Below, one piece after another: positions 1-47,296 of a DNA stretch of 64,000 nt. Position 1 is the stretch's first letter, and every line of letters starts with the position of its first letter. The notes below the pieces were generated by a model. It did not search any database, was not told where the DNA came from, and saw nothing but the letters and a program-made list of their open reading frames with translations. Origin of the DNA: Eledone cirrhosa (taxonomy: Eukaryota); NCBI GenBank assembly GCA_964016885.1, contig OZ024743.1:58900001-58964000 (forward strand), read 5' to 3'. A program made the position numbers and the translations under genes.

Positions 1-430
1 GGTGGTTGTCGCGGTGGTGGTGGTGGTGGAGGCTTTAACACCCGCAGTCATTGGTAATGGCGGGAAATGAATGTCTGCCTGAGACAAATTTAAAATATTG
101 CTACTGCTTATATTTTTTTTTTGTGTTGGCAAACGTAGTAACATTTACAATGGTGGTGTCGGTGTGAGGTGTTATTTTGTGAGGAAGGCTTTCAGCTGCT
201 TCGTGCAGAGGGGAATTAGCCATTTTTTTCAAAGAAATTTTTGGATAATAATAGAAGTTAAAATTTTGGGCACAAGGACCCAATCTTTTAGGGTGTCCTT
301 TTCGGAAAACAATGTATGTGTGCTTATAAACAGTTAACAATAAAATTTTCCATAAATGGCAATTTTTAACAAACGGAAATAACAAACCTTTGCGGAGCTC
401 ACGATGATACGATTTGCTACGTAGGTCGCC
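1..430 (-). mobile_element. 5' end (5'UTR + ORF1 start) of a putative L1/Tx1-type LINE, running off the window to the left
   Basis: Abuts (AAT)n at 431. Shares AACAAAC..GAGCTCACGAT-x-TAC (381-410) with the 5' end of the element at 13050-14390. Minus-strand ATG at 223 (MANSPLHEAAES) is followed by Thr-rich sequence, as in that element's ORF1. Confidence 0.55.

Positions 431-465
<35 letters not shown>
431..465. repeat. (AAT)n microsatellite; further tracts at 2906-2968, 5062-5093, 7947-7967, 9244-9256, 9796-9814, 14391-14411
   Basis: Directly visible; each tract lies at an element boundary. Confidence 0.95.
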
Positions 466-467
<2 letters not shown>

Positions 468-2905
468 CTGGTTGGACAGCTTGAGGGGAAAGAAAGAGGC
501 AACGACTTGATCTCTGGGACGGAGCAAACTAAAACATTCTGGAGAGGAATATGGGAGCAGGATGTTAGACATAATGTCCAGGCAGGGTGGATTGAGAGAG
601 TACAGAGGGAGATCGGTGAGCAGGCACACCAACAAACTCATTTGAGTATCACAGTTGAAACTCTTAAGGGGCAGGCCAAAAAACTAACCAACTGGAAATC
701 ACCAGGCCCGGATGGTGTGCAGGGGTATTGGATTAAAAGTTTAACATCCCTCCACCCGAAGCTGACGGCCATGTTCAATGACTGCTTGGTGTCGGGTGAG
801 GTGCCAGAGTGGTTGACAAAAGGTACCACAGTTCTGATAATGAAAGACCGAATCAAGGGTAATGATGTTACCAACTATAGACCTATCACATGTCTGTCCG
901 TAATGTGGAAACTGTTGACGAGCATTGTGTCTGAGGAAATCTACCATCACCTCCACACAAACAACTTGTTGCCGGACGAACAGAAAGGATGCCGAAAGAA
1001 GTCACGTGGTACAAAGGACCAGTTACTTATTGATAAGATGGTAATGGGGAATTGCAGGAGGAGACACACTGATCTTGCCATGGGATGGATAGACTACAGA
1101 AAGGCATTTGACATGGTGCCTCATTCTTGGATCACCAAAAGCCTGGAGATCTTCAGGGTGGCAGATAACATCAGACAGTTGCTGGGCAGGAGTATGGGGT
1201 CCTGGGAGACAGAGTTGACATCAACTGGAGTATCCTTGGGAAGCGTGAAGATCAATAGAGGTATCTTCCAGGGAGATAGCCTGTCCCCTCTGTTGTTTGT
1301 CCTTGCCCTGATGCTCTTGACCATTATGCTGCGAAAAGTGAGAGCAGGATACAAGTTGGGAAAGGGAGAGCTTACCATCAATCACCTCCTCTTCATGGAC
1401 GATCTTAAGCTCTTCGGGAAAAGTGAGAAGGAGTTGGATGTGCTTGTTGACACTGTCCGTATTTTCAGCAGTGATATATGTATGCAGTTTGGTATTAGTA
1501 AATGTGGAGTCATTGTGATGAGGAGGGGTAGGTTGAGCAGAAGTAACGGGATCCAGATACCAACAGGTGAGATGATAAAGGAAATTGACTCTGAGGAAGG
1601 ATACAAGTATTTGGGCGTTCTGGAGGCTGATGGCATAAAGAACAAAAAAGTGAAGGAATTGTTAAGAACTGAATACATTCGGAGAGTAAGGAGCGTATTG
1701 AAGTCACATCTGAACAGCAGAAATGCCATAAGTGCAGTAAATTCCCGAGCTGTGTCTATTATTAAGTACAGTGCGGGAATTCTGAGATGGAATGTTGCTG
1801 AACAAAAAGAAATGGATAGGAAGACTAGGAAGCTATTGACTATCTACAACATGTTCCACAGGAGGAGTTATGTCGATAGACTCTACCTAAGGAGATCTGA
1901 GGGTGGAAGAGGTCTTATCAGCATAGAGGACTGTGTTCAGATGGAGAAAAACAACCTATACAAATACGTGACCTATAGTAAGAAGCCAATGCTCAGAACC
2001 GTACTGAAGGAGGGGACAGTAGGCCAGGGGATGTCCAAGGAGGAAATAACATCAAGGAGGAAGAGCAGCCTTCAGGGAAAATCCCTTCATAGTACCTTCT
2101 TTGAGAAAACTGAATTTAGAGATCCACAGACATGGAACTGGTTGAGAAGAGGAGACCTCAAAAAGGCTACAGAAGGAATGCTAATGGCTGCGCAGGAGTA
2201 GGCCCTCAAAACGAAGTGGTTGAAGCACCATATTTACAAGGAGGAGGCTAGCCCACTGTACAGGATCTGTGGAGAGAGAGAGGAGACTGTGGCTCACATT
2301 GTATCCGAGTGTAAACACCTAGCCCAGACCCACTATAAGGGCTGGAGACACGATGTGATGGGCAGGGTGATCCACTGGCACCTGTGCAAAGTAAACAATT
2401 TACCACATTCTGAGAAATGGTATGAGCATAGGCCAGAGGCGGTGATGGAGAACAATCAGGTGAAGGTGCTGTGGGATTTTAGGATACAGACGGACAAAAA
2501 ACTGGAACACAATAGGCCTAACCTGGTGGTTGTGGACAAAGAAAAAAGATCGTGTCTGATTGTGGATGTGGCCTGCCCTTTCGACACGAGAGTGCAAGAG
2601 AAGGAGAGGGAGAAAATTAACCGATACCAGGACCTAAAGTGGGAGGTGAAAAGGATTTGGAACTGCCATGAAATCAAAGTGATCCCGATTGTCATAGGCG
2701 CACTGGGGACTATCTCCAAAAGTTTCCAGGGATGGTTAAAGAAAATCGGCCCTTTCACGCTTTTTCGAACGCTTCAAAAGGCATGCTTGCTTGGAACAGC
2801 AAGAACCCTCCGATACGTCCTGAATATCTGAGGCTGCAGGTAGTGGCTTGATATTCATTCCAACGGACTTTCCAGTTAACCAACATCAATGACTGATATT
2901 CAAGG
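466..2905 (+). mobile_element. R4/Dong-clade non-LTR retrotransposon (family A, copy 1), 5'-truncated, premature stop at 2199-2201
   Basis: RT motifs WKSPGPDG, NYRPITCL, EQKGC, WIDYRKAFDMV, GIFQGDSLSP, HLLFMDDLKL. Zinc knuckle (Y/C)RICGEREETVAHIVSEC, RHD, RLE motif RP(N/D)LVV..DVACPFD..EKINRY. Stop at 2831, 74-nt 3'UTR, then (AAT)n. CAG>TAG relative to copy 2. Confidence 0.9.
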
Positions 2906-2914
2906 AATAACAAC

Positions 2915-2965
<51 letters not shown>

Positions 2966-2970
<5 letters not shown>

Positions 2971-5060
2971 CTGCTTGATGTCAGGTGAGGTACCAGAGTG
3001 GTTTACAAAAGGTACCACAGTTCTGATAATGAAAGACCGAATCAAGGGTAATGATGTTACCAACTATAGACCTATCACATGTATGTCCGTAATGTGGAAA
3101 CTGTTGACGAGCATTGTGTCTGAGGAAATCTACCATCACCTCCACACAAACAACTTGTTACTGGATGAACAGAAAGGATGCCGAAAGAAGTCACGTGGTA
3201 CAAAGGACCAGTTACTTATTGATAAGATGGTAATGGGGAATTCCAGGAGGAGACACACTGATCTTGCATGGCATGGATAGACTACAGAAAGGCATCTGAC
3301 ATGGTGCCTCATTCTTGGATCACCAAAAGCCGGGAGATCTTCAAGGTGGCAGATAACATCAGACAGTTGTTGGGCAAGAGTATGAGGTCCTGGGAAATAG
3401 AGTTGACATCAACTGGAGAATACTTGGGAAGCGTGAAGATCAAGAGAGGTATCTTCCAGGGAGATAGCCTGTCCCCCCTGTTGTTTGTCCTTGCCCTGAT
3501 GCCCCTGACCAGTGCACTGCGAAAAGTGAGAGCAGGATACAGGTTGGGAAAGGGAGGGCTTACCATCAATCACCTCCTCTTCATGGACGATGTTAAGCTC
3601 TTCGGGAAGAGTGAGAAGGAGTTGGATGTGCTTGTTGACACTGTCCGTATTTTCAGCAGTGATATATGTATGCAGTTTGGTATTAGTAAGTGTGGAGTCA
3701 TTGTGATTAGGAGGGGTAGGTTGAGCAGAAGTAACGGAATCCAGATAACAACAGGTGAGATGATAAAGGAAATTGACTCTGAGGAAGGATACAAGTATTT
3801 GGGCGTTCTGGAGGCTGATGGCATAAAGAACAAAAAAATGAAGGAATTGTTAAGAACTGAATACATTCGGAGAGTAAGGAGCGTATTGAAGTCACATCTG
3901 AACAGCAGAAATGCCATAAGCGCAGTACATTCCCGAGCTGTGTCTATTATTAGGTACAGTGCGGGAATTCTGAGATGGAATGTTGCTGAACAAAAAGAAA
4001 TTGATAGGAAGACTAGGAAGCTATTGACTATCTACAACATGTTCCACAAGAGGAGTGATGTCGATAGACTCTACCTAAGGAGATCTGAGGGTGGAAGAGG
4101 TCTTATCAGCACAGAGGACTGTGTTCAGATGGAGAAAAACAACCTACACAAATACGTGACTGATAGTAAGGAGCCAATGCTCAGAACTGTACTGAAGGAG
4201 GGGACAATAGGCCAGAGGAAGAGAAAGAGCAGCCTTCAGGAAAAATCCCTTCATAGTACCTTCTTTTAGAAAACTGAATTTAGAGATCCACAGACATGGA
4301 ACTGGTTGAGAAGAGGAGACCTTAAAAAGGCTACAGAAGGAATGTTAATGGCTGCGCAGGAGCAGGCCCTCAAAACGAAGTGGTTGAAACACCATATTTA
4401 CAAGGAGGAGGCTAGCCCACTGTGCAGGATCTGTGGAGAGAGAGAGGAGACTGTGGCTCACATTGTATCCGAGTGTAAACACCTAGCCCAGACCCACTAT
4501 AAGGGCTGGAGACATGATGTGATGGGCAGGGTGATCCACTGTCATTTGTGCAAAGTAAACAATTTACCACATTCTGAGAAATGGTACGAGCATAAGCCAG
4601 AGGCGGTGATGGAGAACGATCAGGTGAAGGTGCTGTGGGATTTTAGGATACGGACGGACAAGAAACTGGAACACAATAGACCTGACCTGGTGGTTGTGGA
4701 CAAAGAAAAAAGATCGTGTCTGATTGTGGATGTGGCCTGCCCATTCGACACGAGAGTGCAAGAGGGAGAAAATTAACCGATACCAGGACTTAAAGTGGCA
4801 GGTAAAAAGGATTTGGAACTGCCATGAAGTCAAAGTGATCCCGATTGTCATAGGCGCACTGGGGACTCTCTCCAAAACTTTCCAGGGATGGTTAAAGAAA
4901 ATCGGCCCCTTCACGCTTTTTCGAACGCTTCAAAAGGCATGCTTGCTGGGAACAGCAAGAACCCTCCGATACGTCCTGAATATCTGAGGCTGCAGGTAGT
5001 GGCTTGATATTCATTCCAACGGACTTTCCAGTTAACTAACATCAATGATTGAGATTCATG

Positions 5061-5061
<1 letters not shown>
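2966..5061 (+). mobile_element. R4/Dong-clade element (family A, copy 2), more deeply 5'-truncated, frameshifted
   Basis: Near-identical to copy 1 from its position ~776 onward. ORF pieces 2975-3280, 3268-4269, 4306-4776, 4724-4987. Same 3'UTR ending in (AAT)n. Confidence 0.9.
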
Positions 5062-5091
<30 letters not shown>

Positions 5092-5094
<3 letters not shown>

Positions 5095-7946
5095 CTTCTC
5101 CGATCTGACATAGAAATTTTAACAAACTATAAAGTAGGTGAACATGTTAAACAAACTAAACTTAGAAAATTGAAAAAAAAGTACAGTATAAGATCAACAT
5201 GTGACATAGACATGCTGATAGAAACAATCAAGCAAAAAGTGTCGGCCAAAGCTGCTCGTATAAGGCGCTTTGAAAAACGATCTAGATTCTATAAGGACAA
5301 TAATATGTTCAAAAACAACCAAAGAAACTTCTACAGAAAAATTGGTAAGTCAACAATAACTGCTAAATCAATACCACCCAAGGAGGAAGTGCAAGAATTC
5401 TGGGAAAAGATCTGGGCCGAAGAAAAAGTTCATAACATACATGCCCCATGGATAGACAGACAAATGAAAGAAACAGCTCACCTTGAAGAACAAACATGGG
5501 AAAATATAACAGTTGAACAGCTGCGCTTGGCTCTAAGAAAAACCAGCAAATGGAAATCCCCAGGAAAAGACAAAATACAAAACTTTTGGATAAATGCCTT
5601 CACAGAGTCTCATGGGCTGTTAGCCCAACTTTACAATGAAATAGTTAAGGAGCCAGAAAAGATACCATCATGGCTAGTTAACGGCATTACATTCCTGCTA
5701 CCGAAGAATGATGAGACAAACAATCCCAAAAATTACAGACCGATAACCTGCTTGACCACAATGTATAAAATTTTAACATCAGTCCTAACTGAATACACAT
5801 ATGACCACCTGATAACAAATGACCTATTTCCCATTGAGCAGAAAGGGTGTAAACGAGGCTCATATGGCTGTAAGGATCTGCTTCTGGTTAACAAAATGAT
5901 ACTGGAAGATTGTCATAATAGACACAAAAATCTATCGATTGCTTGGATAGATTATAAAAAAGCATTTGATAGTTTGCCACACAGTTGGATTGAAAAATGT
6001 TTAGAGATTTTCAAAATATCCCCCGTTGTCAGGAGGTTTTTGTCATTCAGTATGAGGACATGGAGAACGACACTCCTTTTGAATAGTGAAACAAAATCAC
6101 TGGAAGCTGGAGAAGTTAACATTAATTGTGGAATTTTTCAGGGTGACTCTTTATCACCGCTTTTATTCTGCATCGCACTTATACCATTAAGTAAAATGCT
6201 CAATGAAACAAAACATGGATATAGAGTCTATGACAAAACCATTAATCACCTGTTCTACATGGATGACCTGAAACTATTTGCAAAAAATGATGAACAATTG
6301 CAAGGGCTATTATCCACTGTGAAGCAGTTCAGTGATGACATTAAAATGGAGTTTGGACTGGATAAATGCGCCAAAGCAACGTTCACCAGAGGAAAGCTGC
6401 TGAAGAGTTCAGACATTAATCTTGATCGGAGGAACGTGATAAGAGAGCTTGATCAAGAACAAACTTACAAATATCTAGGTGTTTGTGAAGGAGACGGAAT
6501 CAAGCACTCGACAATGAGGGAAAGGATAAGGAAGGAATGTTACCGCAGAGTCAGAGCAATCTTAAGAACGGAATTGAATGCAAGGAATAGGATCGATGCC
6601 ATAAACACGCTTGCCATACCAGTAGTAACCTACAGTTACAATGTCATCAACTGGTCAAGCACAGAGATCCGTAGGCTCGATACAAAAATCCGAAAATTCT
6701 TAACCATGCACAGAATGCATCACCCTAAGGCAGACATAGATAGAATATATCTCCCTAGGAAAGAAGGAGGACGTGGGTTAATCCAGTTAGACATTGCGTT
6801 GAAAACTGCAACAATTGGATTATCCACATATCTAAGGGAATCAAATGATTGGATGATCAAACTCGTTTTGAAACACGAAAGCACCAAAAGATCATATTCC
6901 ATTACAAAAGATGCACAAAGATACAGTAATGGACTACAAATTTCAGAAGTCCCATTTACTGCTGAAATGGAAAACACAGAAAAAGCAAAGCAGGTAAAAG
7001 TAACTGCAAAGAAAGAACTGCTACAGAAACTGGCTAAGAAATGGCAAGAAAAGCCTCTGTATGGAAAATACCCAGAGCGAGCTAACAATCCTGATGTTGA
7101 CAAAACTTTAACCCATCAGTGGTTGGCATCCTCTGGACTGAAATCGGAGACTGAAGGACTGATTATATCCGCACAAGATCAGTGTCTGCCAACAAAAAAT
7201 TACCAAGCCAACATAATAAAAAATGGGTGCAGCCCATTATGCCGTGTATGCAAAAAACAACCAGAGACCATTGACCATATAATCTCAATGTGCAGTCCTA
7301 TAGCTCCAACCGAATACCTAAACAGGCATGACAGAGCTGCACAATACATACATTGGATAATGTGTAAGCATTTTGACCTGCCCCATCAAAAGAATTGGTG
7401 GGAGCATCAACCACCTCCCATACTTGAAAAAGATCACATCTCAATCTTGTGGAACTTTAGCATCCAAACAGACCGAAAAATAGATGCAAATAGACCTGAT
7501 ATAATATTGAAGGACTTTCAAAGGAGGGTATGCCTGCTAATTGATATGTCTGTTCCAATAGACAAGAATGTATCTATAAAAACATTTGAAAAATTGAGCA
7601 AGTATAAGGACCTGGAGATAGAAATTGGAAAAATGTGGAAATTGAGAACTAAAACAATACCAGTGGTTGTAGGCGCTCTGGGAATGATACCTAAGGGGTC
7701 TAACGACTACTTATCGCAAATCCCAGGAAACCCGCGTATAGGAGAAATACAAAAGATAGTACTAATGGGAACTGCCCATATACTAAGGAAGATCCTGTCA
7801 ATATAAGTACATCACAAGTCTAAACACTAACGATGCATGTGTGAATATGTGTGTTCTTTCTTGGACATGGCGGACCTTGTTGTCTCTTGAGGTCACTGGT
7901 TGTGACTTGGTGATAACTCGTATAAACATAAAGCAAGATAAATGCA
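5092..7946 (+). mobile_element. R4/Dong-clade element (family B), 5'-truncated but with an uninterrupted ORF
   Basis: Same domain order as family A but divergent nucleotide sequence. ~140-nt 3'UTR ends in (AAT)n; flanked by AAT on both sides. Confidence 0.9.
5170..7806 (+). CDS. RT + CCHC zinc knuckle + restriction-like endonuclease polyprotein (878 aa; frame open back to the AAT tract, native N-terminus missing)
   Basis: GIFQGDSLSP, HLFYMDDLKL, CRVCKKQPETIDHIISMC, RHD, RPDIIL..IDMSVPID..EKLSKY, C-terminal GTAHILRKIL. Confidence 0.88.
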   Translation: MKKKYSIRSTCDIDMLIETIKQKVSAKAARIRRFEKRSRFYKDNNMFKNNQRNFYRKIGKSTITAKSIPPKEEVQEFWEKIWAEEKVHNIHAPWIDRQMKETAHLEEQTWENITVEQLRLALRKTSKWKSPGKDKIQNFWINAFTESHGLLAQLYNEIVKEPEKIPSWLVNGITFLLPKNDETNNPKNYRPITCLTTMYKILTSVLTEYTYDHLITNDLFPIEQKGCKRGSYGCKDLLLVNKMILEDCHNRHKNLSIAWIDYKKAFDSLPHSWIEKCLEIFKISPVVRRFLSFSMRTWRTTLLLNSETKSLEAGEVNINCGIFQGDSLSPLLFCIALIPLSKMLNETKHGYRVYDKTINHLFYMDDLKLFAKNDEQLQGLLSTVKQFSDDIKMEFGLDKCAKATFTRGKLLKSSDINLDRRNVIRELDQEQTYKYLGVCEGDGIKHSTMRERIRKECYRRVRAILRTELNARNRIDAINTLAIPVVTYSYNVINWSSTEIRRLDTKIRKFLTMHRMHHPKADIDRIYLPRKEGGRGLIQLDIALKTATIGLSTYLRESNDWMIKLVLKHESTKRSYSITKDAQRYSNGLQISEVPFTAEMENTEKAKQVKVTAKKELLQKLAKKWQEKPLYGKYPERANNPDVDKTLTHQWLASSGLKSETEGLIISAQDQCLPTKNYQANIIKNGCSPLCRVCKKQPETIDHIISMCSPIAPTEYLNRHDRAAQYIHWIMCKHFDLPHQKNWWEHQPPPILEKDHISILWNFSIQTDRKIDANRPDIILKDFQRRVCLLIDMSVPIDKNVSIKTFEKLSKYKDLEIEIGKMWKLRTKTIPVVVGALGMIPKGSNDYLSQIPGNPRIGEIQKIVLMGTAHILRKILSI

Positions 7947-7967
7947 AATAATAATAATAATAATAAT

Positions 7968-9243
7968 ACTTTCTTTATTAACCACAGGGGTTTACATAAA
8001 GTAGACATTAAAGACAGTACAGGACAAGACAGAACGGTACAAATGGGCATTTCTGCGTGTAAAAAAAAAAAAAACAGGATGTAACAAAAAATAACAATGA
8101 AACATTCCCCAATACGGGGAGATTCCCGAAGTACATTCGCGGGGAAAGCCCATTAAAAAGCCCCAGTGACCCTGACCACCAGGGCAAGTACCCTCTCCCA
8201 GTTTTTACCTTTAATTTACAGACACATACTCAGAGTAGACCCATTCACTCGGGCCATTCTTGCCTCTCTCACACATCTTTCAACGAAATGCTGGGAAGAG
8301 AACACTTCCCTCTCTACCCTGATTTTCATTTTCAAATGAAATTTGAAAAGGTTAATCACGGCATCACCGAAGGGGTAAGTGCTCGTCTTCAGCCTTTTCA
8401 AACATGTCCACCATACTATCTCTTTCGCCATGGTCACCAGACAGATAAAAACTGCCTGCCCTTCCCGGCTAAAGGAAAGGGGGCGGGGCAATCCTCACGA
8501 TGGACTCAGCTGATAGCTGGATCCGTCCTACACCCGACAGCAGGTGTTCGACATAAACCGACAAGTCAGCAATGATCGGACACTGGTCGAGTGCGTGCAG
8601 AACGGGTTCGTCGCCCTGCGCGCATCTCGGACATACCCGGCTGACGGCACCTCCATGCTTGTAGAGTTTATCCCGAACTGGCAAACGCCTCGGTATCACT
8701 GCCAGGCCAGGGATTACTGGAAGTTGTCCATAGGCCCCGGCCCGAAAGTTCTTCCGAAGTGATTGGCTAGTCGATTTTCGTCGACGCCTAGATTTTCCCC
8801 AAGTACGTCGTCGTTCTTCCCCTCCACTAATCCTCTATAGAACGCCAAGGTGGAGTTTCCACCGATCACATTGCCCGATTGGTCGGGGGCTGTGAGCGCC
8901 TGAAGACATTCTAGTCTCCAAGCGCTCCCTCTCGGTCTTCGCTTGACCCAGGACTGCAGAACCGTCAAGGAGACGAGCTGGGGAAAGACGCGTCTAGCAA
9001 ACGGCGACCACACTTGATCACCGTCGAGGAAGAGGTGGAGATGTCGTAGCCTGAGCGCGTGTCTGCGCATCATCAGCCACGGCATTCCAAGCCCTCCACG
9101 TAGCGGGTGTTGACAGCAGAAGGACCGCCTGACCATTGGAGCGCGTCCCTTCCACAAAAAGCGAAAGAGAAAACGCTCCTGCGCAGTCAGGCGGGGCTTA
9201 GGACAAGGTACGGCGGTCAGGCTGTATTAGATGACGGACGCGA
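7968..9243 (-). mobile_element. 5'-truncated L1/Tx1-type LINE (ORF2 C-terminus + 3'UTR), frameshifted
   Basis: Minus ORFs 8714-9157 (RGGLGMP), 8469-8699 (LPVRDKL..CPRC..EPVLHALDQC, zf-RVT-like) and 8216-8491. The 3' end reads ...CCCCTGTGGTTAATAAAGAAAGT into (ATT)n; the 5' break is also at AAT. Confidence 0.75.
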
Positions 9244-9812
9244 TAATAATAATAATTATAATGATGATTTTTTTACATATTTAAAACAATTGTGATAGAA
9301 TAAGTCTTATTACAAATGGAACATAAGATATCAGTCTTAACTCTCAGGAAGTGTCGATGCATCAAATTATGGCATAGGGCTCCAATATTTAATATTTAAT
9401 GTTGTACCAGAAATGTTTTAGTCAGAAAAGAAAATGGCTAGAAAACAACAGCCAAATAACTTCACCACCAACACCACCACCGCCACCGTCACTATCACCA
9501 TCACCACTATCACAAAAAAATCTAGCAAAATACAGACAAGCACTATCCCTACAGTACTGCTACCCCACCACCACCTCTACGACTGCATCATCGCTACCAC
9601 CACTATTCCCTCACCACTTAAGAGACGGGTGATGGTAGTGCCGCTACACATGAAAAGAAGCGAGCAAGGTATCAAAAGATATAAATAGACTGAGTTAGTG
9701 ACTCGGTCAAACAGCTAGCAACAACACCAAAATAATTATGTTGTATTTCTAAACTATCTCAAAATGTTTAGTTTAAACGATGTCAAATCTAAACTATAAT
9801 ATAATAATAATA

Positions 9813-9900
9813 ATTGTTTCTGCTTTTGGCACGAGAACAGCAATTGTCCCGATGTGTTGCTGGTGCTTTGTTTTGTCGGCCCCGTAAGGATGAAAGGGAA
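9813..9900 (-). mobile_element. Degenerate 3' fragment of the tRNA-derived SINE
   Basis: TTGTTTCTGCTTTTGGCAC...GTCGGCCCCGTAAGGATGAAAGG matches other copies; abuts (AAT)n. Confidence 0.7.
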
Positions 9901-10139
9901 AAACAAATTATAGAACAGAACACAGACAGAAGCAAACGCAACGACAAACACAAATGCCAAAAGTTTTGAACACAACAACCCCTACTTCCCTTAGCAGCAG
10001 CAGCAACAACAACACTAGTAACCGATGTTACTGGCCTTGAAAAACGAAAAATGCAAAGGAAAAAACAAACAAACCAGAAGAACTAAGTCAGACATTCAAA
10101 CATTACAATGAAACATGTTTATCTATTTATTTGTTTATT

Positions 10140-13010
10140 TATTCATGTTCGTCTACAGCGTGATGGTGCCACGCTAAAATCACCGGTGGTTATGTAAACA
10201 TACATTCACCTATCCTCGATATGAGTGTTTAAATATCGAACCTAAACAGTTCGAATAACGGTGAAGAGGAGACTGGAACGTTATGTGACAGACTCTCACT
10301 CAGCAAGTGCTCCCTGGCCCAGCAGCAGGGATCTGGCTGTCATCCAAATACTGCTGGTGTTGGAGGAAGAAGAAGAAGGAAAGGGACAAGAACCAACTGG
10401 ACGAAATAATTGAATAGAACTGTTATGCAATGTTACCTGAAGAGTAAACCCAAGGAAAAAGGCTATAGGAAACGGATGCATAACATCTGGAACGATATTG
10501 GTCTATTTAAATTAGATGAACAAAAATTGGCCGGGCAGGACAGGGTAATAAAATCTGATGGATGGATAAGCGAGTTGGAACTGGAGGAACTAAGCAGAGA
10601 GATTAGGTTCGAAATGGAGAGTGGAGTATGCCAGGCAAACGAGACAGTGGGAAATGAAGGTGGAGAGGTTGAGAGACCGGAGGAAGCATCCGAAGCAGAC
10701 AATGATCTGAATGCTGACATAAATAACATCTGGAACAAAGGTGTGGCCATTGAAGAAATGAATGCTGACGGGCTAGTACAAGATTTTGTTGATATCCTAA
10801 ACTTAGTGGTAGATGAAATGAACAATGATAGTGGGAAACCTATGAACCTAAGATTTGTAGACAGGAAACAGTTAAAAGAAACAACAGCTAAGGTAAACAA
10901 AGTCATCCCATACCTTGAAGCGAGGAACCTTCACAAATGCAACAATATCCTCAAAGCAACAGCAAATGCGGTGAGGAAATTACTTGGCATAAAAACGAGA
11001 GGAAACAACAAACAAGAAAAATCAGAACCTTGGTGGAAGAAACGACTGAATGGTCAAATCAGGGAAATGAGAAATGACATTGGAAAGCTTGAGTCCCTAC
11101 TGAATGGGACACTACAAAACATAGACACTAAAAATAGACGAGAAATAAAGTACAAAACTAGGAGGAAAAAGCTAAATATTATCATAGAGGAACTGAAGCA
11201 ACGCATTGTAGCAAACAGTGCAAAGATTAGGCGGTATGAGAGCAGAGTCAGTCAGTATAGAATGAACCGCATGTTTGACAACAACCAGATGTTGTTTGGG
11301 CAGCTTGCAGAGAAAGAAAGAGGCAACGACTTGATACCTGAGGCGGAACAGAGTATAATATTCTGGAGTGGAATATGGGAGCAGGATGTTGAACATAATG
11401 ATCAGGAAGTGTGGATTGACACAGTACAAAAGGAGATTAGTGAACAAGCACACCAACAAACTGATTTAAGTATCACAGTTGAAACTCTTAAAGGGCAGGC
11501 CAGAAAACTAACCAACTGGAAATCACCAGGCCCAGATGGTGTGCAGGCGTATTGAATTAAAAATATAACATACCTCCACCCGAAACTGACAACCCTGTTC
11601 AATGACTGCTTGATGTCGGGTGAGGTACAAGAGTGGTTGACAAAGGGTACCACAGTCCTGGTAATGAAGACCGAATCAAGGGTAATGATGTTACCAACTA
11701 TAGACCTATCACATGTCTATCCGTAATGTGGAAACTGTTAACAAGCATTGTGTCTGAGGAAATCTACCATCACCTCCACCCAAACTGCTTGATACCGGAC
11801 GAACAGAAAGGATGCCGAAAGGAGACCCGTTGTACAAAAGACCAGCTACTTATTGATAAGATGGTAATGAGGAATTGCAAGAGGAGACACACTGGTCTTG
11901 CCATGGGATGGATAGACTACAAAAAGGCATTCGGCATGGTACCTCATTCTTGGATAGCCTAATCTTCAAGGTGGCAGATAACATCAACCAGTTGTTGAGC
12001 AAAAGTATGAAGCCCTGGGAAACAGAATTAACATCGGGTGGAGAATCGTTGGGAAGAGTGAAGATCAAGAGAGGTATCTTCCAGGGAGATAGTCTGTCCC
12101 CTCTGTTGTTTGTCCTTGCCCTGATACCCTTGACCATTATACTGCGAGAAGTGAGAACAGGATATAAGTTGGGAAAAGGAGAGCTTAACATGAAAAGGAG
12201 AGCTTAACATGAACCACCTTCTCTTCATGGACGATCTTAAACTCTTTGGGAAGTGTGAGAAGGAGTTGTATGTACTTGTTGACACTGTCTGTATTTTCAG
12301 CAGTGATATATGCATGCAATCTGGTATTAATAAGTTTGGACTCCTAGTGATGAAGAGGGGTAAATTGAGAAGAAGCAACAGAATCCAGGTACCAACAGGT
12401 GAGATGATAAAGGAAATTGACACTGAAGGTGGAGGGAGAGAGAGGAGACTGTGGCTCACATTGTATCCGAGTGTAAACATCTAGCCCAGACTCACTATAA
12501 AGGCTGGACACGTGATGTGATGGGCAGGATGATCCACTGGCACCTATGCAAAGTAAACAATTTACCACATTGCGAAAAGTGGTATGAGCGTAAGCCAGAG
12601 TCGGTGATAGAAAACGATCAGGTGAAGGTGCTATGGGATTTTAGGATACAGACGGATAAGAAACTGGAACACAATAGGCCTGACCTGGTGGTTTTGGACA
12701 AGGAAAAAAGATCGTGCCTGATTGTAGATGTGGCCTGCCCATTCGACACGAGAGTGCAAGAGAAGGAGAGGGAGAACATTAACCGTTACCAGGACTTAAA
12801 GTGGGAGGTAAAAAGGATTTGGAACTGCCATGAAGACAGAGTCGTCCCGATTGTCATAGGCGCACTAGGTACTATCTCAAAGAGTTAACAAGGATGGATA
12901 AAGAAAGTTAGTCCAGCCCCACTTTTTGGAACACTTCAAAAGGCATGCTTACTGGGAATAGCAAGAACACTCCGATACGTCCTGAATATCTGAGGCTGCA
13001 GATATTCATG
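10140..13010 (+). mobile_element. R4/Dong family A relative with N-terminal region, decayed (stops, frameshifts, internal deletion)
   Basis: ORF 10410-11555 (N-terminal region, PWWKKRL, WKSPGPDG), then RT fragments to 12430. Jumps from IKEIDTEG directly to the zinc knuckle. RLE runs to TGA 12993, then 3'UTR start GGCTGCAG. 5' boundary approximate. Confidence 0.85.
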
Positions 13011-13049
13011 CTTGGTATACATTTTAAGAAACTTTCATGACTGATCAAC

Positions 13050-14390
13050 CCCGGACCAGTCCTCTCTTCCTGTCCTGGTAACCTCTATTGTGACGGCATC
13101 TGACCTCTCCACAATCATGCATCCCAAAAGCCACCACATATCTAGTCCAGGTGGAATCCTGGGAATGCGTACTCTAGTTTTTCTTTTTTCCATGTGGGAG
13201 GGGTACATAATAACATTGCTGGTTTTGAAGGGGTCGTCGAGTGCTTCAAAGTGAGGGCCTCCGACTTAAACAGCACCGACATGGTGACGTATTGTTGATC
13301 CCTCGCTACGTACTCTGTATCACCTTTGATGCACCTCAGCGCAGCCTCGACGTCTGCTTGGGGAGAGTTTGTGACTCTTTTCGTCTCAGCTGAGATGCAT
13401 CTGGAGACCAGATTTCTCTTCTCCACCGCTTCTATGGTTTCTGCCGGGGCAATTAAGTTGGCCCAGGTTTGCTCCTGTTTGATGAGCTTCCATGCCTAGG
13501 CCAACTTTGTTTCCATGTCTGTCAAGTCCATGTTGAAGCATGGCCTTTTCTTGGCTTTGCCACAGCGAAGTTGGCCCAGGTTTGCTCCTGTTTGATGAGC
13601 TTCCATGCCTAGGCCAACTTTGTTTCCATGTCTGGCAAGTCCATGTTGAAGCATGGCCTTTTCTTGGCTCTGCCACAGCGAAAGTGTTCTTGTTGTTGTC
13701 GTTGGTGTTGTTGTTGTCGCTGTTCTTGTTGGTTTTGTTGCTGTTATCACTGTTACAGTTAGTTATATCTTTGGTGCTGTCGCTGATTATGTTCTGTTTA
13801 CTGGTGTTAATTTCGTTGTTATTTTAGTTGTAATTGTTGCTGCTGCTATTGTTATTATTGTTGTTGTTGCTGTTGTTGTGGTTGTCACTGTTGTTGATAT
13901 ACTTTGTTGTCGTTCTTTCTGTTGTTGTTGTTGTCATTATTGCAGTTGTCGTTGACTTTCCTGTCGTAGCAGGTGCTGTTGTTCTTGTTCAAGAATCTTT
14001 TTTTACTGTTTTTGGTAATATCGCTGTTGCTGCTGCTGGCCTTTTTCTTCTCATTGTTGCTGGTGCTGGTGTTGGCGATATTGCCTGTGTGTTGTTATAT
14101 TTTAAAATTGTTGTGGATAGAGCAGCGTTAATAGCCTCAAAGTTTGACTCGCTGTCGCAAGACAGCAAAGTCAAAGTTGGGGGGCGTGCCTCCGCCATGT
14201 TTTTTTTTTCGACAAAAATTTTCTTTTACACACACAAAGTTTTAATATTTGGGGAGTCCTTTCTTGGGGGCAAAAAGACTAAAGTCTTATTTCCCGTTTG
14301 AAACAAAAATATTAATGACAAACTTATTTCAAACCGTTGAACAAAACAAACTTACGAGCTCACGATAGTACTCCATTCACTTCAACGACC
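13050..14390 (-). mobile_element. 5' portion (5'UTR + disrupted ORF1) of a putative L1/Tx1-type LINE
   Basis: Starts exactly at (AAT)n. ATG at 14198 (MAEARPPTL), Thr/Asn-rich low-complexity segment, further ORF1-like piece 13142-13426. 5' motif shared with 1-430. No ORF2 attached, so the clade is inferred. Confidence 0.55.
13455..13680. repeat. 113-bp tandem duplication (2 copies)
   Basis: AAGTTGGCCCAGG...GCCACAGCG at 13455-13567 and 13568-13680, 2 mismatches seen. Confidence 0.9.
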
Positions 14391-14408
14391 AATAATAATA
14401 ATAATAAT

Positions 14409-14596
14409 AATTGTTTCTACTTTTGGCACAAGGCCAGCAAATTACCCAGTGCATTACTGGTACTTTATTTTATCGACCCCGTAAGGATGAAAGGCAAAGT
14501 TAACCTCGGAGGGATTTGTACTCAGAATGGCAAGGGCCGTAACTCTATGCGTCAAAGCATGGCGTCCGACCCTCTACCGATATTGCCAATCCACCG
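14409..14596 (-). mobile_element. tRNA-derived SINE, near full length, inside an AAT tract
   Basis: Head CGGTGGATTGGCAATATCGGTAGAGG (A-box-like), B-box-like GAGTACAAATC, core TTTGCCTTTCATCCTTACGGGGTCGATAAAATAAAGTACCAG, tail GCCTTGTGCCAAAAGTAGAAACAATT. Confidence 0.85.
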
Positions 14597-15010
14597 AATA
14601 ATAATAACATTAATGAAGATGCTGATATTACATAAATCGTTTATTCATTAGAATTATTTCAACGGTTCTCATATGAAATCAAGATGCAATTCATGAATTT
14701 GTTGCTGTTATGAGAACGGTATCCTCAGATGAAATTCGATTTTGTGTTTTGTTGACAGCAGGAAAAAACCCACACATCCTACTGCCCGTGCGTCCATAAG
14801 ACATATGAATACCTGAAAGGGTCTCCCAGCCGTCGTGTTTACTGGAGTAAAGTGCTATCCACGTTTAAATTAGGGAAATCAGGAGATCCACTCATCTCCC
14901 ATGGAATTGAGGTCGTAAATCAGCAGAAAGGTAACAACTCAAGTATGCTATTGTTATCTGTATCAAACGATAGTCTATGCGTAGCCAGAATATATGTATG
15001 TATTTGTATA

Positions 15011-24371: not shown

Positions 24372-24959
24372 CATGGCGTGCGGCGTTGTAGCAAATGGGA
24401 TACATATGAATAAAATTAGAGCGAGAAGACAGGGCGTCGGTCATCAGTGATCTTCCAGCCGTCATTCGTATTTCTTCGCATTAAAGATCATATACCTCCG
24501 TTTGATGCGAGCAATAACTAAAAAAGTTATTGGGATATGTAGAATAGGGAGAAGCGAGCGAGACATGTAAACAAACAGAGATGGTAATGCAACGGAAAGA
24601 GAGGAATAGGAGAAACAAATCCATGATATCTGTGAACTTAAGTTCTATCAAATCATGGACGAGGAGAGACACAGACGCGTCCGAGCCATGTGAGATGTAA
24701 GCGAGAAAAAGATATCACACAAGTCAGACGGGAGGAAGTGAGTCCCCTCTCTCACTTTGAGAGAACCAAGGAGTTGTAGGTACATAAGGCTGGTTAAATC
24801 TATACAGATGTAGATCCTTAACCCGAGCCTGGGCCTTTTGGTTAAGTAAGTTTACGCAGGAGGGTATATTTTTTTATAGTTCTTATTAAGCTCCTTAAGA
24901 ACGAAAGAGTTGTAGGTTTCAGGAGGCATGGTGTATAGATTTTTGGTTTTGTCAGACAT

Positions 24960-25902
24960 AACATGTCCTATATTGGCTCTACCTCTAACCCTTTTAAGGT
25001 ACACTATAACGCGCACTTATTTTCCTTCCGAGACCCTAGCAATAGATGCTCAACATCTCTAGCTAGGCTCATTAAAATCCTTAAATTAAGCAACATTGCA
25101 CACTCACTAACATGGGATATCTTGGCTAGATCCCCAGCGTTCAACGGACGAAGAAACTGTTGTGATCTATGTCTTACAGGGGCCTATTACATAACTCTGT
25201 CACGACCACAACCTATTAATGATAGAAATGAGGTAACTATTAACTGTTACCATCGAAAGGCAAATTCCTTCGCCAACAGAATATTTGACCCAACATAGTC
25301 ATCAAATCTCGCCATTACATATAGCTAGCGTGTTAAATATTTAACTGAGACTGTTACCTCCCTTACATTGTCTCACATTAAAGCCTATTAGCATTACTTA
25401 GTTATAAATCACCTAGAAATTTTAATTAGTAAGGTAAATTTCCTAAAGTGGCCATTTTATTACGCATAGGCAGACCTTGCTCAATCCAGCCTCGACAGAA
25501 GCCTAATGCTTGCTTATAGCAGACATTTGGCACACCCAAGAACCCTTTCGTGAAATACCAATATATGTAACATCACCTTCACGTAATCACCATACTTTAC
25601 TTTATTTTATATTCCTTATTCCATCTTAACCTTATCAATATTTTCATTATCTCATTTGAAGTTCTGAAGAGCTGCTCGATTATATTACCTAAGTTACCTA
25701 TCTTCATCTGAACCAGATCAATAATGATCAATTGATCCAGAAATATTATATGGAGTAGCGAAACAATTGTAAACAAACATTATTATTCCTTACTTTAAAC
25801 TATAATTACACTCCTTATTCCTTACATTAAACTGCAAACATGTTGACACTCTTTAACTAACGTCTCCCTTGTGAATGTTGTGGTCTTGTTTTGCTTAACT
25901 AA

Positions 25903-25975: not shown

Positions 25976-26962
25976 TAGCATTAAAGCCCGGCGTTGCTCG
26001 GGGTCATTAAGTTACCAAAGTTAGGTTGCACCACCCATTTTATGGCAGCACTTTTTTGTCTGCCAGGCACTGGGTGAATGAATTGCAGACCTGGAAGCAT
26101 GAGCTGCGCCAGCAGTGACAATTGTAGTTTCGCCTATGGATATTATCTCTGTGCAAAAAAGTGTTGAAATTTATTGTTTCACAGTACTTGCGCAACACGC
26201 GCGTAGACGATGCCAGCCGAACAACAGAGCTGCGATGGAGTTGTTCTGCATGGTTGTCTAATGTGTGTTTTCTAAATTTAAGTAAGTAGGGAGGGTTGTG
26301 ATATGAGGGAGAGTTAGCTGTTGTTTCTAGCAGCTTTAGTGACCTCATAGAGGATATGTGTTTTCTAAATTTAAGACAGTAGGGAGTGGTGTGATATGGG
26401 GGAGAGTTAGCTGCTGTTTCTAGCAGGTTTAGTGACCTCATAGAAGATATGTTTTCTAAATTTAAGACAGTATGGAGGGGTGTGATATGGGGGAGAGCTA
26501 GCTGCTGTTTCTAGCAGGTTTAGTGATGTCATAGAAGATATGTTTTCTAAATTTAAGACAGTAGGGAGTGGTGTGATACGGGGGAGAGTTAGCTGCTGTT
26601 TCTAGCAGGTTTAGTAACCTCATAGAGGATATGTGTTTTCTAAATTTAAGACAGTAGGGAGTGGTGTGAACGGACAGTATCACCATCAAGCTTGGAAACA
26701 GAAAGTAGCAGAAAGTATGAAGTTGTATAGATTTTGAATGGTAGTGGAAAGAGTTTAGCAGTTTAAATGACAGAGAAAAATCGTAAAATATTGAGTTTTA
26801 TCTATTTTTTGCGTCATTGTGGCTGAAATTGAAAAAATTATCTGCGTCAAGACGCAATAGAAACTATTTCGAGTGTTGAATTGTAAATTTCAATTGAAGA
26901 AATTCTATATCGTAGATTTCTATAACGAAAGAGCTTGACCACACACTGAGCTTTATAGATTA

Positions 26963-27039: not shown

Positions 27040-28090
27040 ATGAATTAGAAGACATCTTTTTATTTGCAGTTTGAACTATAATACCAGGTTGGTTAGCGTC
27101 GATCCTCCTATCAGTGCGTATTTGCATATCCTAGAGTGAGGGGGCTTTGGCATTCTCTGACACCATTTCTTGTGTACGTGTGTAACACTTTTTCTGTTTG
27201 CATTTCGTAGTATTGGCATTACTTCCAGTGTATGTTAATCCTAACTCTGTCGTGTCTATGTATATGTACTCCGTTACTTCATTCATTCATACGTCTTTGA
27301 ACTTCTGTGTATTCCAACTCCTTTATCTCATAGTTTTTCACTCGTAATTTTCCCCTCTTCAGGGTTGTTCTGGCACATTATTCTAGTCAAAATCACGTGT
27401 GAAACCATTTATTGCCTCAAGCAGCGTTTTAAGTTGTCTCACGTCTGTCGCGCACGGATTATAGCCTCCATAGACCGGAGATGCTCAATTTTCTTGCCAT
27501 AGCATTTATAACCAAGTATAGTCCTGGTTTATATCTCAGGTTATAGTGTCAATGCTAAACACAAGAGGAATTGTGGTAGGGAGTCTCCTTGAAATATTCA
27601 TCTTTCGCCTTATCTGCTGAATTCATATATAAATTCATCTTTCCCCTTATCTGCTGAATTGCTTGCCACTTATTCATGTCATATATGATGAATGTTTTTA
27701 TTCTTTGCACTACTTAGTTTATGAATGATTCTGTCAATCAATCCATGCCATGTGGGATATTTTTTCATCTTCTGCAGTTTTATGTTATCATTTTGTTGAT
27801 TAGTAATTGGTTTTTACAGGCATATGGTAGTTTGTAGCAGAATTTCTGTTCTTCTGGAAATAGAATTTGTTATCTAAGCGCTTGGTCAGTTTCTGCGATA
27901 TTATTGCAGTTAAGGTCTTTTAATTTATAGAAAGCCATATTATGGGGGTTTGCCGTAACATCATTCATGCGGTTCAGTGTGGTTTACCTCTTAGTTATCT
28001 AGTCGGGCGGCACCCCTGTCTCATTAGCATCTCATTAATTTTTATCGAATTGCACCATGTGTCTCTGTTAAATATTTCAAGCAGAAATTT
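27040..28090 (-). pseudogene. Highly decayed R4/Dong element (family B-like), not in the ORF track
   Basis: Manual minus-strand translation gives LFPEEQKFC..YACKNQLLINKMI (~27790-27865), MAWID (~27745), IFQGDSL..FLLCLAL (~27550-27600), RIDANQP (~27090). The 5' side abuts (ATT)n at 28093. Confidence 0.75.
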
Positions 28091-28667
28091 GGTATTATTA
28101 TTATTATTATCATTATTACCATTATTATCATATCAAGAGTAAGCCAAAATGATAAAAGAGATGTAATAATTTACACACCACACTTAAAACCACGCAATGA
28201 ATTCTTTTCAAAATTCCAGTATTCGCTAGTGTAAATTGATTATTTGAATTACAAAAGAAGCATTAATAGCTTGCTGCGTGGAAGCTATTTATTAAATGCA
28301 GAAACACAAAACAGCTGACTTCACTTCACATTTATCAATTATAACTTAGTGTCAAGACTTTCGTCGCACAGTCTGCCACCTGGTTACTAACAGAGTACTG
28401 AAACTAAGAAAAGAATTGACAAGAAGAAAATGATAATTATAAAGTAAAATTAACAGTTTTTCTATCATATTTTGAATATCTACAATGAGTCATCCACGAT
28501 ATAATTTCTTTAGTTTCAAGGCACTTTAACAGATCACTTGTCATAGAAGTACAAATTTAGAATTAATAGTTCAATCATCGAACTATTTGAAATGCTAAAT
28601 AATGTCGTGCGACATTATAGTAATTGTTCAAACAAGATGGGCAAATCGTGTGAGAATGTTTGTTATA

Positions 28668-40789: not shown

Positions 40790-42747
40790 AAAAAGAGTAC
40801 ACAAATACACGCACGTACACAGAACCCCGCCCCCCCCAAACAAAAAACGCACGCACATACAGAACCCACGTAACGCCTGTACCCGCACGCATACGAATGT
40901 ATACACCAAATACATATAAAAATATATATATATTAAAAAATATAAATATATATATATATGTGTGTGTGTGTGTGCGTGTATACATATAATTAAATAAACG
41001 TATATAAATAAATAAACAAATACGTATATAACAAGCGCAAACACATACCTACATGTAAATAGACTTATGTTCGGAGACTACGTGAACCAAAACACGATGT
41101 ACACATATAAACACACCCTACATACGTACGAACCCGCATACTCACACAGACGCAGAACTCACGTATACACATAACCAAAAGCATATGTACCGGAAAAAAT
41201 AATAATATATACGCCATAACATATACAATCAAATATACGTACGAGAAAGTATACGTACCTTCACAAAACATACAGGTAATATATACTAGAGAGGCATTTC
41301 TCGGATAGGGGGCAGTCAACCCGATTCCTACAATTAGAGTTAGCACTAACTACAGGGTTGCACGTGTTCCTACGGCTAGGTTATTTAGCTAAATTTGAAG
41401 CGGTGATGTTATTTGCAAGGTTAGGAGTCGTAGAATAAGAAATTTTAATAGTATTTCTATTAAAAATTTTACTATATTTATATGTAGGGGTAAAATGCTT
41501 CATAATAAGGGAGAGAAAGATCTTAGCTAATGGTGTGGCCACCTTCATATTATATGGTCGGTTACACCATATAATGTGTCGGGATCTATTTCTTCTAGGT
41601 CTATTCTCGTACTCTGTATATGCTACCTTATCGACAAATCCACTCCGAGTAAGTGCTTCATTGTAATATGTGGAATGGTCGTTGAAAATATGCTCGTTAG
41701 TAGATATACGGGAAAGCCTCAAAGAAACGTTTCTTACCAGGTTATTGGTTATGCTGGCAGGATGGTTACAAATGCCTCTCTAGTAACATTGTCTACAAAT
41801 GTAAGGTTGAACGTAGGGCCTACATAGGGTTAACCGCCAATAGATTCAAGCAGCGTCTTTACATGAATACCCATTCTTTTCGTTACCCTTTAAGAAGGAA
41901 TATGACGTCACTTTCAGCTTATATCTGGAGTCTAAAAACAACCACACCCAATATAATTTACACTGGGAGATCCTAGCTAGGGCTAGATAGTATAACGGAA
42001 ACAAAAGTCCATGTGACCTCTGCGACGCTGAGGCCCTGGAAATACTCTACGGCAAAAACCATATCTAAAAAAAAAACCGCACGCCCATACAGAACCCACG
42101 CAACTCTTGTACCCGCACGCATACGAATGTATACACCAAATACACATAAAAATATATATTAAAAACAAATATATAAATATATCTATGTGTGTGTGTCTAT
42201 ACATATAATTAAATAAACGTATATAAATAAATTAAAGCCCTGGAAATACTCTACGGCAAAGACCATATCTTAAACAAAAAATCTGAGTCAATTTCGGTTT
42301 GTAAACATAAATTGCACAAAACTTTCCTGTATTACAGCCCCACATTATACCCTAACGGATAGTACCAACTATACGCGGATATTTTACGTCTTGAGGTGGT
42401 AGCTAAGTATATGTTATGTTTATACCATTTCTTATTTGTATAGGTAAGTATATATTACCTGTATGTTTTTTGAAGGTACGTATACTTTCTCGTACGTATA
42501 TTTGATTGTATATGTTATGGCGTATATATTATTATTTTTTCCGGTACATATGCTTTTAGTTATGTGTATACGTGAGTTTTGCGTCTGTGTGAGTATGCGG
42601 GTTCGTACGTATGTAGGGTGTGTTTATATGTGTACATCGTGTTTTGGTTGACGTCGTCTCCGAACATAAGTGTATTTACATGTAGGTATGTGTGTGCGCT
42701 GGTTATATACATATTAATTTATTTATATACGTTTATTTAATTATATG

Positions 42748-45838: not shown

Positions 45839-47296
45839 CTAATGGGTACAATTTGTACTACTAGAACGTTTGGGTTTATAATAAAAGTAAGAATTAGAAA
45901 TAGCGTGGGGGCAAGAAGAGAATATCTCGGACTTTCTATTAAGTAAGGATACGCTAGAGAAAATTATAGAGTGTGTCTCAAGGATACAGAGTTTACAAAA
46001 CTTAGTATGAGTAGGAAGGTGGTTAGAGCGTGCTACTAAACGCCAGTTAAGGCTATATGGTATATAAGCTCCCTTAAGATCCCAGATATAATGCGCTAAA
46101 GAAGTAGAATTCTTAAACCTAACATGTTTGAAGTTAGAGATATGAGAGTTAAACCTAGTCTTAAAAGTGTTTGAAGTAGATCCTATATAAGTTCTATTAG
46201 AGGAATTAGTTATAACTTCGCAAGCGTAGACAATGTTCTTAGAAAGGCAGTTACCGTTTAAAGGGCAGTTAGCACTCACTCTACAATTGCACTTCCGGGT
46301 GTTATTGGTTGGCTCGAGTGGTGATGTATTACACGTAGGATTTCTATTAGATAAGGACTGTTCTGGTGGTAAAGCATTGTCAGATCCGTTCAGACTAGTA
46401 GTATGTAGAGAGGAGAATCCATCCCTAATTTTCCTATTATTAGTGCTAGCTAAATGAGAACTAATATTAGGGGTGGTAGAGAATGAGAGTTTAATAAAAT
46501 TTTTATTAAAAATACCATGGTATTTATGAGAAGGGGGGAAATTTTTCTCTAAGATAGTGAAGAAAGACCTAGGGATATTAGTTGATACATCCTGATTATA
46601 TGGCGGGTTGAAATAAGTATTTAATCGCCTTCTATTTTTATTCTTACCGACCCTACCTTTATCAAATGTCCCACCATCGAGACTAGGGTTACTACCAGGA
46701 TTAGTTAAAGCCACATTCATAGAATCAGCCATAATTTCGTTATGTCTATTATAGTTTCTACCTCCAGTAGATCTGCTGCTGTCCGGAATCCCTTCAAGAG
46801 GATTAGGGCCAATGATAGCAACATTATTAGAATAAGATCCAGCAAAACCAACACCAATGCATGAGCGCACAGGGGGTTCAACTTGTCTCCTAGAGGTATT
46901 ATATTTGCTATTACGAGTCCGGTGGGTTAACTTATGGATGGGTTCAGATACACCTATATAATTTCTACGGTTACTATATTTGCCACTCCCATTCATGGCT
47001 ATGTTATGTGATATAATGTTATTATTGTTAAGAGTAAGCGGAGATTTTCTAAGGTTACTATTATTATATTGTATTTTACTAGAGTGAACTGAATTTGCTA
47101 GGGCATTATTGTAGTACTCCGCATGTTCGTTAAATGTTCCTATGTCCTTAGAGAGTGTGGAAATCCTATTAGATACGCCCTTAATTATAGAGTTTATCAT
47201 AGACTTAGGGTGGTTAGAATTGGGGCTAACATAAGAAAGAATTTCATTAGGCTTATGGAAGGGTTTAAAACTATTAGTGACCAAGTCCAGAGTCAC
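45839..47296 (-). pseudogene. RT thumb + linker + GIY-YIG endonuclease portion of the Penelope-like ORF (485 codons open)
   Basis: SNHP, FNPPYN, CNCRVSANCPLNGNCL, IVYACEV..RTYIGST..FKTR, CKLC.LE, SCPH. Separated from the upstream RT by a -1 frameshift in a T-run near 47300. Confidence 0.88.

Follow-up and report, generated by a model that had tools for sequence, protein, structure and literature searches.

How do retrotransposons of unrelated types come to lie packed in one simple repeat, each type facing its own way? This question is raised by a 64,000-nt stretch of the 3.0-Gb genome of Eledone cirrhosa (G000:C4:58900001-58964000), here called the window, whose coordinates are used throughout; labels such as L031 denote sampled genome loci. 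The first 14,605 nt of the window hold a nest of retrotransposons that lack long terminal repeats (non-LTR elements), bounded by tracts of AAT, which read ATT on the other strand. Two types of long interspersed nuclear element (LINE) take part, Dong-like elements with a restriction-like endonuclease (RLE; DongA, DongB and the DongA relative DongC) and L1/Tx1-like elements with an apurinic/apyrimidinic endonuclease (APE; TxA and TxB), together with a short interspersed nuclear element (SINE). We consider it probable that the nest grew within a pre-existing AAT/ATT microsatellite, in which the Dong-like RLE elements lie reading AAT and the APE-type, likely Tx1-clade elements lie reading ATT, and that nicking of opposite strands sets the polarity of the insertions.

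The target tract is older than the insertions

The region is present in three paralogous copies about 155 kb apart on G000:C4, near 58.75, 58.91 and 59.07 Mb (L031-L034 and L111-L114), which are 92-97% identical and represent a tandem segmental duplication. In the upstream paralogue, 95% identity to the window runs right up to the tract and is followed by a bare (AAT)25, at the site where the window carries approximately 13 kb consisting of a full-length TxA, two DongA copies and a DongB. The downstream paralogue has a bare (AAT)8 at the position occupied in the window by a SINE (14412-14596), and it carries a full-length TxB (5.37 kb). Since bare tracts are found at both empty sites, the AAT repeat pre-existed as the target of the insertions and is not just a tail that they brought along. 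The first-pass annotation had raised the opposite possibility against itself, namely that the tracts are merely 3' tails encoded by the elements. In a fuller form of this view, the array is a passive pile-up in tolerated junk DNA. Such a view can draw on the ATT tails of the SINE and of CR1-like and Penelope-like elements, which give rise to some tracts, and on the location of most SINE copies outside microsatellites. For the LINEs it is refuted by the empty sites and by the triplets at truncation points and full-length starts described below, and no polarity is expected from passive pile-up; we regard it as very improbable.

The empty or filled state of the paralogues also gives the order of insertion. 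TxB entered the AAT tract first, and the region was duplicated after that; the SINE, DongC, a truncated TxA and a 4-kb deletion followed, then a second duplication, and finally the full-length TxA, the two DongA copies and DongB entered the outer (AAT)25. These four young elements are 97.6% (TxA), 98.7 and 96.2% (DongA) and 99.6% (DongB) identical to their nearest sampled copies. The single 25-unit tract of the empty copy corresponds to five tracts with about 66 units in total in the filled copy, which fits the earlier proposal that each insertion regenerates target and the array feeds itself, though slippage changes tract length too. Target precedence and insertion order are what the window locus adds to the junction counts below.

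A locus that is segmentally duplicated and bears deletions might also owe its arrays to recombination between AAT tracts or to misassembly. The copies, however, stem from different families, their ages are unequal (about 79-99.6% identity to the nearest non-paralogous sampled copy), as are their truncation points, and junctions of the same types are found on many contigs. Misassembly was rejected on these grounds, and an origin by either route is extremely improbable.

Triplets and polarity at junctions across the genome

Tabulation of genomic copies relative to AAT revealed enrichment of the triplet at their flanks and a biased orientation across the genome, in agreement with the earlier claim that two unrelated LINE types share one triplet from opposite strands. 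With exact patterns counted over the whole genome, (ATT)3 was found directly upstream of 1587 of 1705 full-length TxA starts, and in 93% of starts the element joined its 5' flank exactly and in phase, as ATT|GG. TxA 3' ends, AATAAA and then ATT, entered (ATT)3 in 9008 cases, against three for a reversed control. As background, (ATT)3 lay within 25 nt of 60 out of 20,000 random positions (0.3%). Each locus search yielded 408-2447 candidates, of which at most 40 were scored and the best 30 loci retained, the copy in the window being counted as well. Among these best 30 loci, ATT was present at the 5' end of TxA in 30/30 and of TxB in 27/30 (22 exact and five near) and at the 3' end of TxA in 28/30, while AAT was present at the 3' ends of DongA and DongB in 30/30 each (60/60 together).

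Truncation points cannot be element-encoded tails. The 5'-truncation points lay at triplets in 14 of 15 DongA and seven of nine DongB copies (21/24 for Dong in total), and at (ATT)3 in 14 of 20 TxA copies. The raw TxA tally was 13/24, from which L005, L007, L015 and L019 were dropped as internal deletions; the true start of L014 is at ATT. A rare off-target event was seen in L021, where a truncated TxA lies within a SINE; the site is outside any repeat and shows a duplication of about 11 bp.

Polarity was scored over 350 distinct tracts, comprising all sampled genome loci and enriched through the way in which the loci were collected. Dong elements were on the plus strand at 209 of 214 junctions, relative to AAT, the APE families on the minus strand at 165 of 167 and the SINE on the minus strand at 110 of 115. 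The opposite polarity, which had been called strict, is near-strict and not absolute. An unbiased sample consisted of 60 stretches of 10 kb at round coordinates (600 kb). Here 32 of the 42 tracts of at least four units lay within 40 nt of these families, which accounts for a large share of the genome's AAT microsatellites and for local hotspots of transposable elements. Mixed nests occurred in four of the stretches (L232, L234, L250 and L268). The tail-to-tail junction pattern, searched with one tract length only, gave at least nine matches.

Several further observations concern the tracts. Dong junctions often shade from (AAT)n into (AAG)n, and GAA repeats often precede full-length Dong starts (L054, L110, L167, L184 and L250). 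At L247:7924, L026, L271 and L276, TxA or SINE insertions come after CR1-like 3' ends whose tail is (ATT)n. One contig from a sequencing run labelled as another organism contains a TxA 3' end and then nine triplets.

Anatomy of the nest

The anatomy was established by sequence reading, open reading frames (ORFs), self-comparison and Pfam. The first-pass annotation had counted nine insertions in 14.6 kb; the dense packing is real, and the number of independent insertions within 1-14605 is eight. At the left edge, 1-430 (minus strand) is the 5' untranslated region (UTR) and ORF1 start of TxA, decayed by stops and an internal deletion of about 230 bp. The element to which this 5' end belongs is full-length (5.66 kb), has two ORFs and extends upstream to L031:4770. 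An (AAT)12 tract (431-466) forms a head-to-head junction between this 5' end and the truncation point of the first DongA copy (467-2905, plus strand), a young 5'-truncated element with reverse transcriptase (RT), CCHC and PD-(D/E)xK motifs. An AAC/AAT tail with (AAT)18 (2906-2968) separates it from the second DongA copy (2969-5061, plus strand), which is 5'-truncated and frameshifted. After (AAT)10 (5062-5093) follows DongB (5094-7946, plus strand), a 5'-truncated and very young element with an open frame of 903 amino acids, whose protein is about 40% identical to that of DongA.

DongB and a TxA copy meet tail to tail at (AAT)7 (7947-7968). This TxA copy (7969-9242, minus strand) is 5'-truncated, comprises the zf-RVT end of ORF2 and a 3' UTR with a CCTGT/CTTGT hairpin and AATAAA, and has ATT on both sides. 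An interrupted (AAT)n (9243-9262) forms another head-to-head junction, followed by DongC (about 9263-13036, plus strand), an older, near-full-length element which has lost its 3' tip and has an internal deletion of about 670 bp at 12428 relative to the paralogue. TxB (13043-14390, minus strand) retains its 5' 1.35 kb only, the 3' part of about 4 kb having been deleted at a GAT microhomology; its ORF1 contains a 113-bp tandem duplication (13455-13682) that is missing from both paralogues. The (AAT)7 at 14391-14411 is both the TxB 5' junction and the tail of the full-length SINE (14412-14596, minus strand), which ends in TGGC-CTTGT-GCCA...ACA(ATT)n and has (AAT)3 (14597-14605) at its 5' flank.

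The re-derived coordinates bear out that all four Dong-like copies are on the plus strand with three running into AAT at their end, that all three APE-type pieces are on the minus strand reading (ATT)n, and that most boundaries are (AAT)n. Two SINEs had been placed on the minus strand, and this orientation is correct for both. The piece at 9796-9901, an old SINE 3' remnant with an ATT tail in the 5' UTR of DongC, shares a block including its flanks (9729-10430) with the unlinked Dong copy L041; it is therefore cargo of the DongC subfamily, and its reading as an insertion of its own was rejected. SINE remnants are carried as cargo in other Dong 5' UTRs as well (L041:2455-2655, L173, L176 and L182), as an antisense 105-bp piece in one Dong subfamily and, in DongB, as a 3' piece in sense orientation whose ATT tail lies inside the element. 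A Dong at 27-28 kb had been said to abut ATT and obey the same rule. This heavily decayed RLE-type remnant (27053-27863), recognized by patchy homology, is indeed on the minus strand; its last match is separated by 230 bp from the ATT tract (28094-28128), and (AT)27 adjoins it on the 3' side, so that it lends the rule weak support. Taken together, the observation made from the window was confirmed in part and its interpretation is supported.

Elsewhere in the window, Penelope-like GIY-YIG elements are found at 24939-25790, 41381-41779, 45839-48332, 56360-59384 and 62430-63585; one kind of Penelope-like end terminates in (ATT)n and forms a landing pad at L204, L083 and L086. A 91-bp tandem repeat (4.4 copies) lies at 26264-26669. 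Another RLE element, the third, lies 14-20 kb upstream of the window (L032:296-2926 and 5073-6144) and shares about 35% identity with each of the two Dongs. It ends ahead of (ACAT)n, and its frames are preceded at a distance of about 2 kb by a pure (GAA)n(GAC)n array of 1.07 kb.

Affiliation of the two LINE types

The Dong copy L047 encodes a single open frame of 1082 amino acids with RT, CCHC and a C-terminal PD-(D/E)xK nuclease. Its best solved match is R2, and the segment RPDLVVVD...LIVDVACP aligns with the R2 nuclease. The presence of (TAA)n on both sides, a trait of the Dong/R4 clade, is seen in the 3' ends and truncation points reported above (60/60 among the best loci, and 21/24). A divergent Myb/SANT domain is described at the N terminus in this clade (PMC7998251); a Pfam scan of the Dong copy detected no N-terminal Myb/SANT, no profile-profile search having been made.

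In the sister TxA copy L040, Pfam recognizes an N-terminal APE domain (Exo_endo_phos, 2e-14), RT (RVT_1, 6e-29) and a C-terminal zinc-binding motif (zf-RVT, 3e-8). The best solved match of ORF2 is human L1 ORF2p (PDB 8SXT and 9K6G; E 2e-53, residues 5-854), while the match to R2 (E 2e-21) covers the RT only, and the catalytic motifs GDWN, YLD and TDH align with L1. By sequence, TxA and TxB belong to the L1 group of APE-type non-LTR elements. Members of the Tx1 clade have two ORFs and a CCHC zinc knuckle in ORF1. The zinc knuckle in ORF1 of the APE element is CVVCGEETHLRAFC, and target-specific insertion into multicopy sequence, another trait of this clade, is seen in the 1587 of 1705 starts and in the empty site. 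Homologue searches with the APE family returned no named Tx1, Kibi, Koshi or L1 sequence among the matches, the closest named homologue being from Argonauta hians (73% identity over the RT region). A quick RT tree, which included no named Tx1, Kibi or Koshi, grouped the families as one octopod clade (SH-aLRT 99), whose sisters are unnamed sequences. TxA and TxB are likely members of the Tx1 clade. The unnamed ORF2 proteins from ENA (P0002-P0264) form a large group with 45-55% RT identity, the sister of the octopod clade. A metagenome scan with protein P0002 found no loci, and an alignment-based scan gave 74 distant loci, mostly 20-35% identical, of which 14 had their ends inspected and showed no ATT array.

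A SINE and its probable partners, the APE families

The unbiased 600 kb contain 125 SINE matches. Among the 78 copies with a complete 3' end in this sample, 11 are flanked by (ATT)3 on the 5' side, a minority that is well above the 0.3% background; in the window this holds for one of 11 matches. A strictly (ATT)n-specific SINE was rejected on these counts. The claim that the SINE uses the AAT/ATT tract stands for 14412-14596, and the SINE as such is not confined to microsatellites, needing ATTAT only. Non-repeat target duplications of 10-22 nt were found for 55 of 202 distinct copies (shuffled control mean 3.3). In 41 of the 46 duplications anchored at the SINE end the sequence starts with ATTAT, and there is no conservation upstream.

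A CTTGT loop is common to the 3' ends of TxA, TxB and the SINE, on the stems AACC/GGTT, GGCC/GGCC and TGGC/GCCA, respectively. The similarity of the SINE to the two LINE ends is limited to this loop, a stem of 3-4 bp, the spacing and the ATT tail. No hairpin was found in the ATT-tailed CR1-like and Penelope-like ends that were examined. The SINE also has the polarity of TxA at the 110 of 115 junctions and ATTAT as its target core. It is likely that the SINE is mobilised by the TxA/TxB machinery by means of the shared hairpin. ARAGORN detected no tRNA in the window; the head of the SINE is tRNA-like by eye only.

A sister family in ATCT repeats

Relatives of TxA and TxB at about 70-78% DNA identity, here called TxC, sit in (ATCT)n/(GATA)n (L227, L233, L258, L273, L279, L280 and L281-L310) and form tandem nests of their own. 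Identity in the RT among the sister families in ATT or ATCT repeats is 69-78%. Among 30 loci, 19 of the 20 visible TxC 3' ends enter TATCTA-type repeats by eye and none of the 20 enters (ATT)3; several truncation points likewise lie in TATCTA-type repeats. A quick tree unites TxC and TxB as sisters and leaves TxA outside the pair (SH-aLRT 99), and this grouping suggests that the ATT target is ancestral to ATCT. A loop of the endonuclease between anchors corresponding to L1 T192 and S202, reported to read the minor groove (PMC1950540), is mostly N-R-I/L-G in the ATT families and N-R-S-G in TxC. We hypothesize that the residue at the loop tip may be linked to target choice, as judged from a single lineage; PMC1950540 cautions that grafted loops do not act as plain modules.

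How opposite polarity could be set

Under target-primed reverse transcription, elements that read ATT would have been primed by the AAT strand, and those that read AAT by the opposite, ATT strand. The nick made by the APE enzyme would fall in the (AAT)n strand, with T^A as its probable position (5'-AAT^AAT-3'); the invariant ATTAT fits this position, which is like the T/A junction of L1. The freed 3' DNA end could then pair with the AUU tail behind the CUUGU hairpin, and a second nick about 10-20 nt away would produce the target duplication. In the case of the Dong RLE, the nicked strand would be (ATT)n. As each insertion would leave triplets on both sides, the number of tracts would grow and both families would be drawn to them. 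The SINE would borrow the APE machinery through the common hairpin, needing only ATTAT, and the ATT tails of SINE, CR1-like and Penelope-like elements may seed new tracts.

Polarity might instead be set by pairing of the RNA tail, if both endonucleases cut AT-rich triplets loosely and only nicks whose 3' end pairs with the tail lead to insertion, the tail being AUU in TxA and in the SINE but AAU in Dong. The SINE has the same sequence, ATTAT, in its target core and in its tail, and nothing is conserved upstream; tail and target match in every family including the ATCT sister, and the L1 endonuclease is reported to sense DNA shape over sequence (PMC1950540). Pairing at the 3' end nevertheless leaves the exact, in-phase ATT|GG junction at the 5' end unexplained, the endonucleases of Tx1L and TRAS1 are sequence-specific in vitro (PMC1950540, PMC7265360), and the loop-tip residue tracks the target, though in one lineage only. 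We therefore consider tail pairing as the determinant of polarity rather unlikely, and a strand-specific nick by each endonuclease is what we infer.

Several points weigh against this preferred model of two strand-specific endonucleases. Strand and position of the nick are unreadable from junctions inside a repeat, which makes the enzyme step inferential, and sampling of the best 30 loci favours young copies. Six of the 20 TxA truncation points are without (ATT)3 (one degenerate, one in (CTT)n, one in a SINE and three plain), and 12 junctions break polarity, at least three of which resemble inverted Dong pieces. The hairpin is short, the minimum-energy folds of the SINE and TxC test pieces are without it, and TxC as an ATCT family has the same 3' hairpin as the ATT families.

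A wider scenario is possible, and we offer it tentatively. An octopod Tx1-like radiation may have retuned one APE endonuclease (ATT in two families, ATCT in a nested sister, with I/L to S at L1 residue 197). Its ATT members may have converged with the RLE-type Dong on opposite strands and may drive a SINE that numbers several hundred thousand copies and seeds new landing pads, which together would form a self-expanding three-party system. If true, the octopod radiation would be a natural mutant series for retrotransposon targeting. The close sister families, which sit in ATT or ATCT repeats and differ in the minor-groove loop, offer a clean natural experiment on the ways in which APE endonucleases acquire or switch sequence specificity.

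Comparison with known systems

Each ingredient of the system has a precedent, and the surprise is moderate. L1 carries a poly(A) tail and inserts at a loosely defined TTTT/AA target. Human L1 ORF2p is the closest solved relative of the TxA protein, and the T^A-type nick is proposed for TxA by analogy; TxA differs from L1 in ending with AATAAA and then ATT.

The Dong half of the system is known biology. For Dong, DongAg, DongBg and Darwinula Dong (R4 clade), (TAA)n is the usual target in insects, molluscs and cnidarians (PMC3812793, PMC7998251), and with a single ORF containing RT and RLE and a (TAA)n target the elements described here show no difference in kind. Target sharing between Dong and an APE element was not found in the available text of these two papers. 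A repeat survey of Octopus vulgaris lists Dong-R4 and L1-Tx1 among the recently active LINEs, its available text not mentioning targets (PMC13282606). In the literature covered, which excludes Repbase, we found neither an ATT-targeting Tx1 nor such a pairing, and Figure 3 or the supplements of PMC4494074 may list an ATT target. General background is available in PMC4640811 and PMC3747384.

SART and TRAS of the R1 clade insert in opposite orientations into one repeat, the telomeric (TTAGG)n of Bombyx, with the endonuclease as main determinant and few units sufficing (PMC7265360). They resemble the present system in that two families use one simple repeat in opposite orientation. Both are APE-type elements of the R1 clade at telomeres, whereas the present system combines APE and RLE elements in a dispersed microsatellite, together with a SINE. 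Kibi (TC)n, Koshi (TTC)n and crocodilian Tx1 (TTCC)n/(TTTC)n are, like TxA and TxB, APE-type two-ORF elements specific for microsatellites (PMC4494074); the targets named in the text of that source are pyrimidine repeats in vertebrates, in contrast to the ATT and, for TxC, ATCT repeats found here. The closest parallel for the SINE is the pair Tx1-Mar/SINEU, in which a SINE with an snRNA-derived head shares the target preference of a Tx1 element, for a Mariner target, and is likely mobilised by it (PMC4494074), whereas the link in the present system consists of the ATTAT target and the 3' hairpin.

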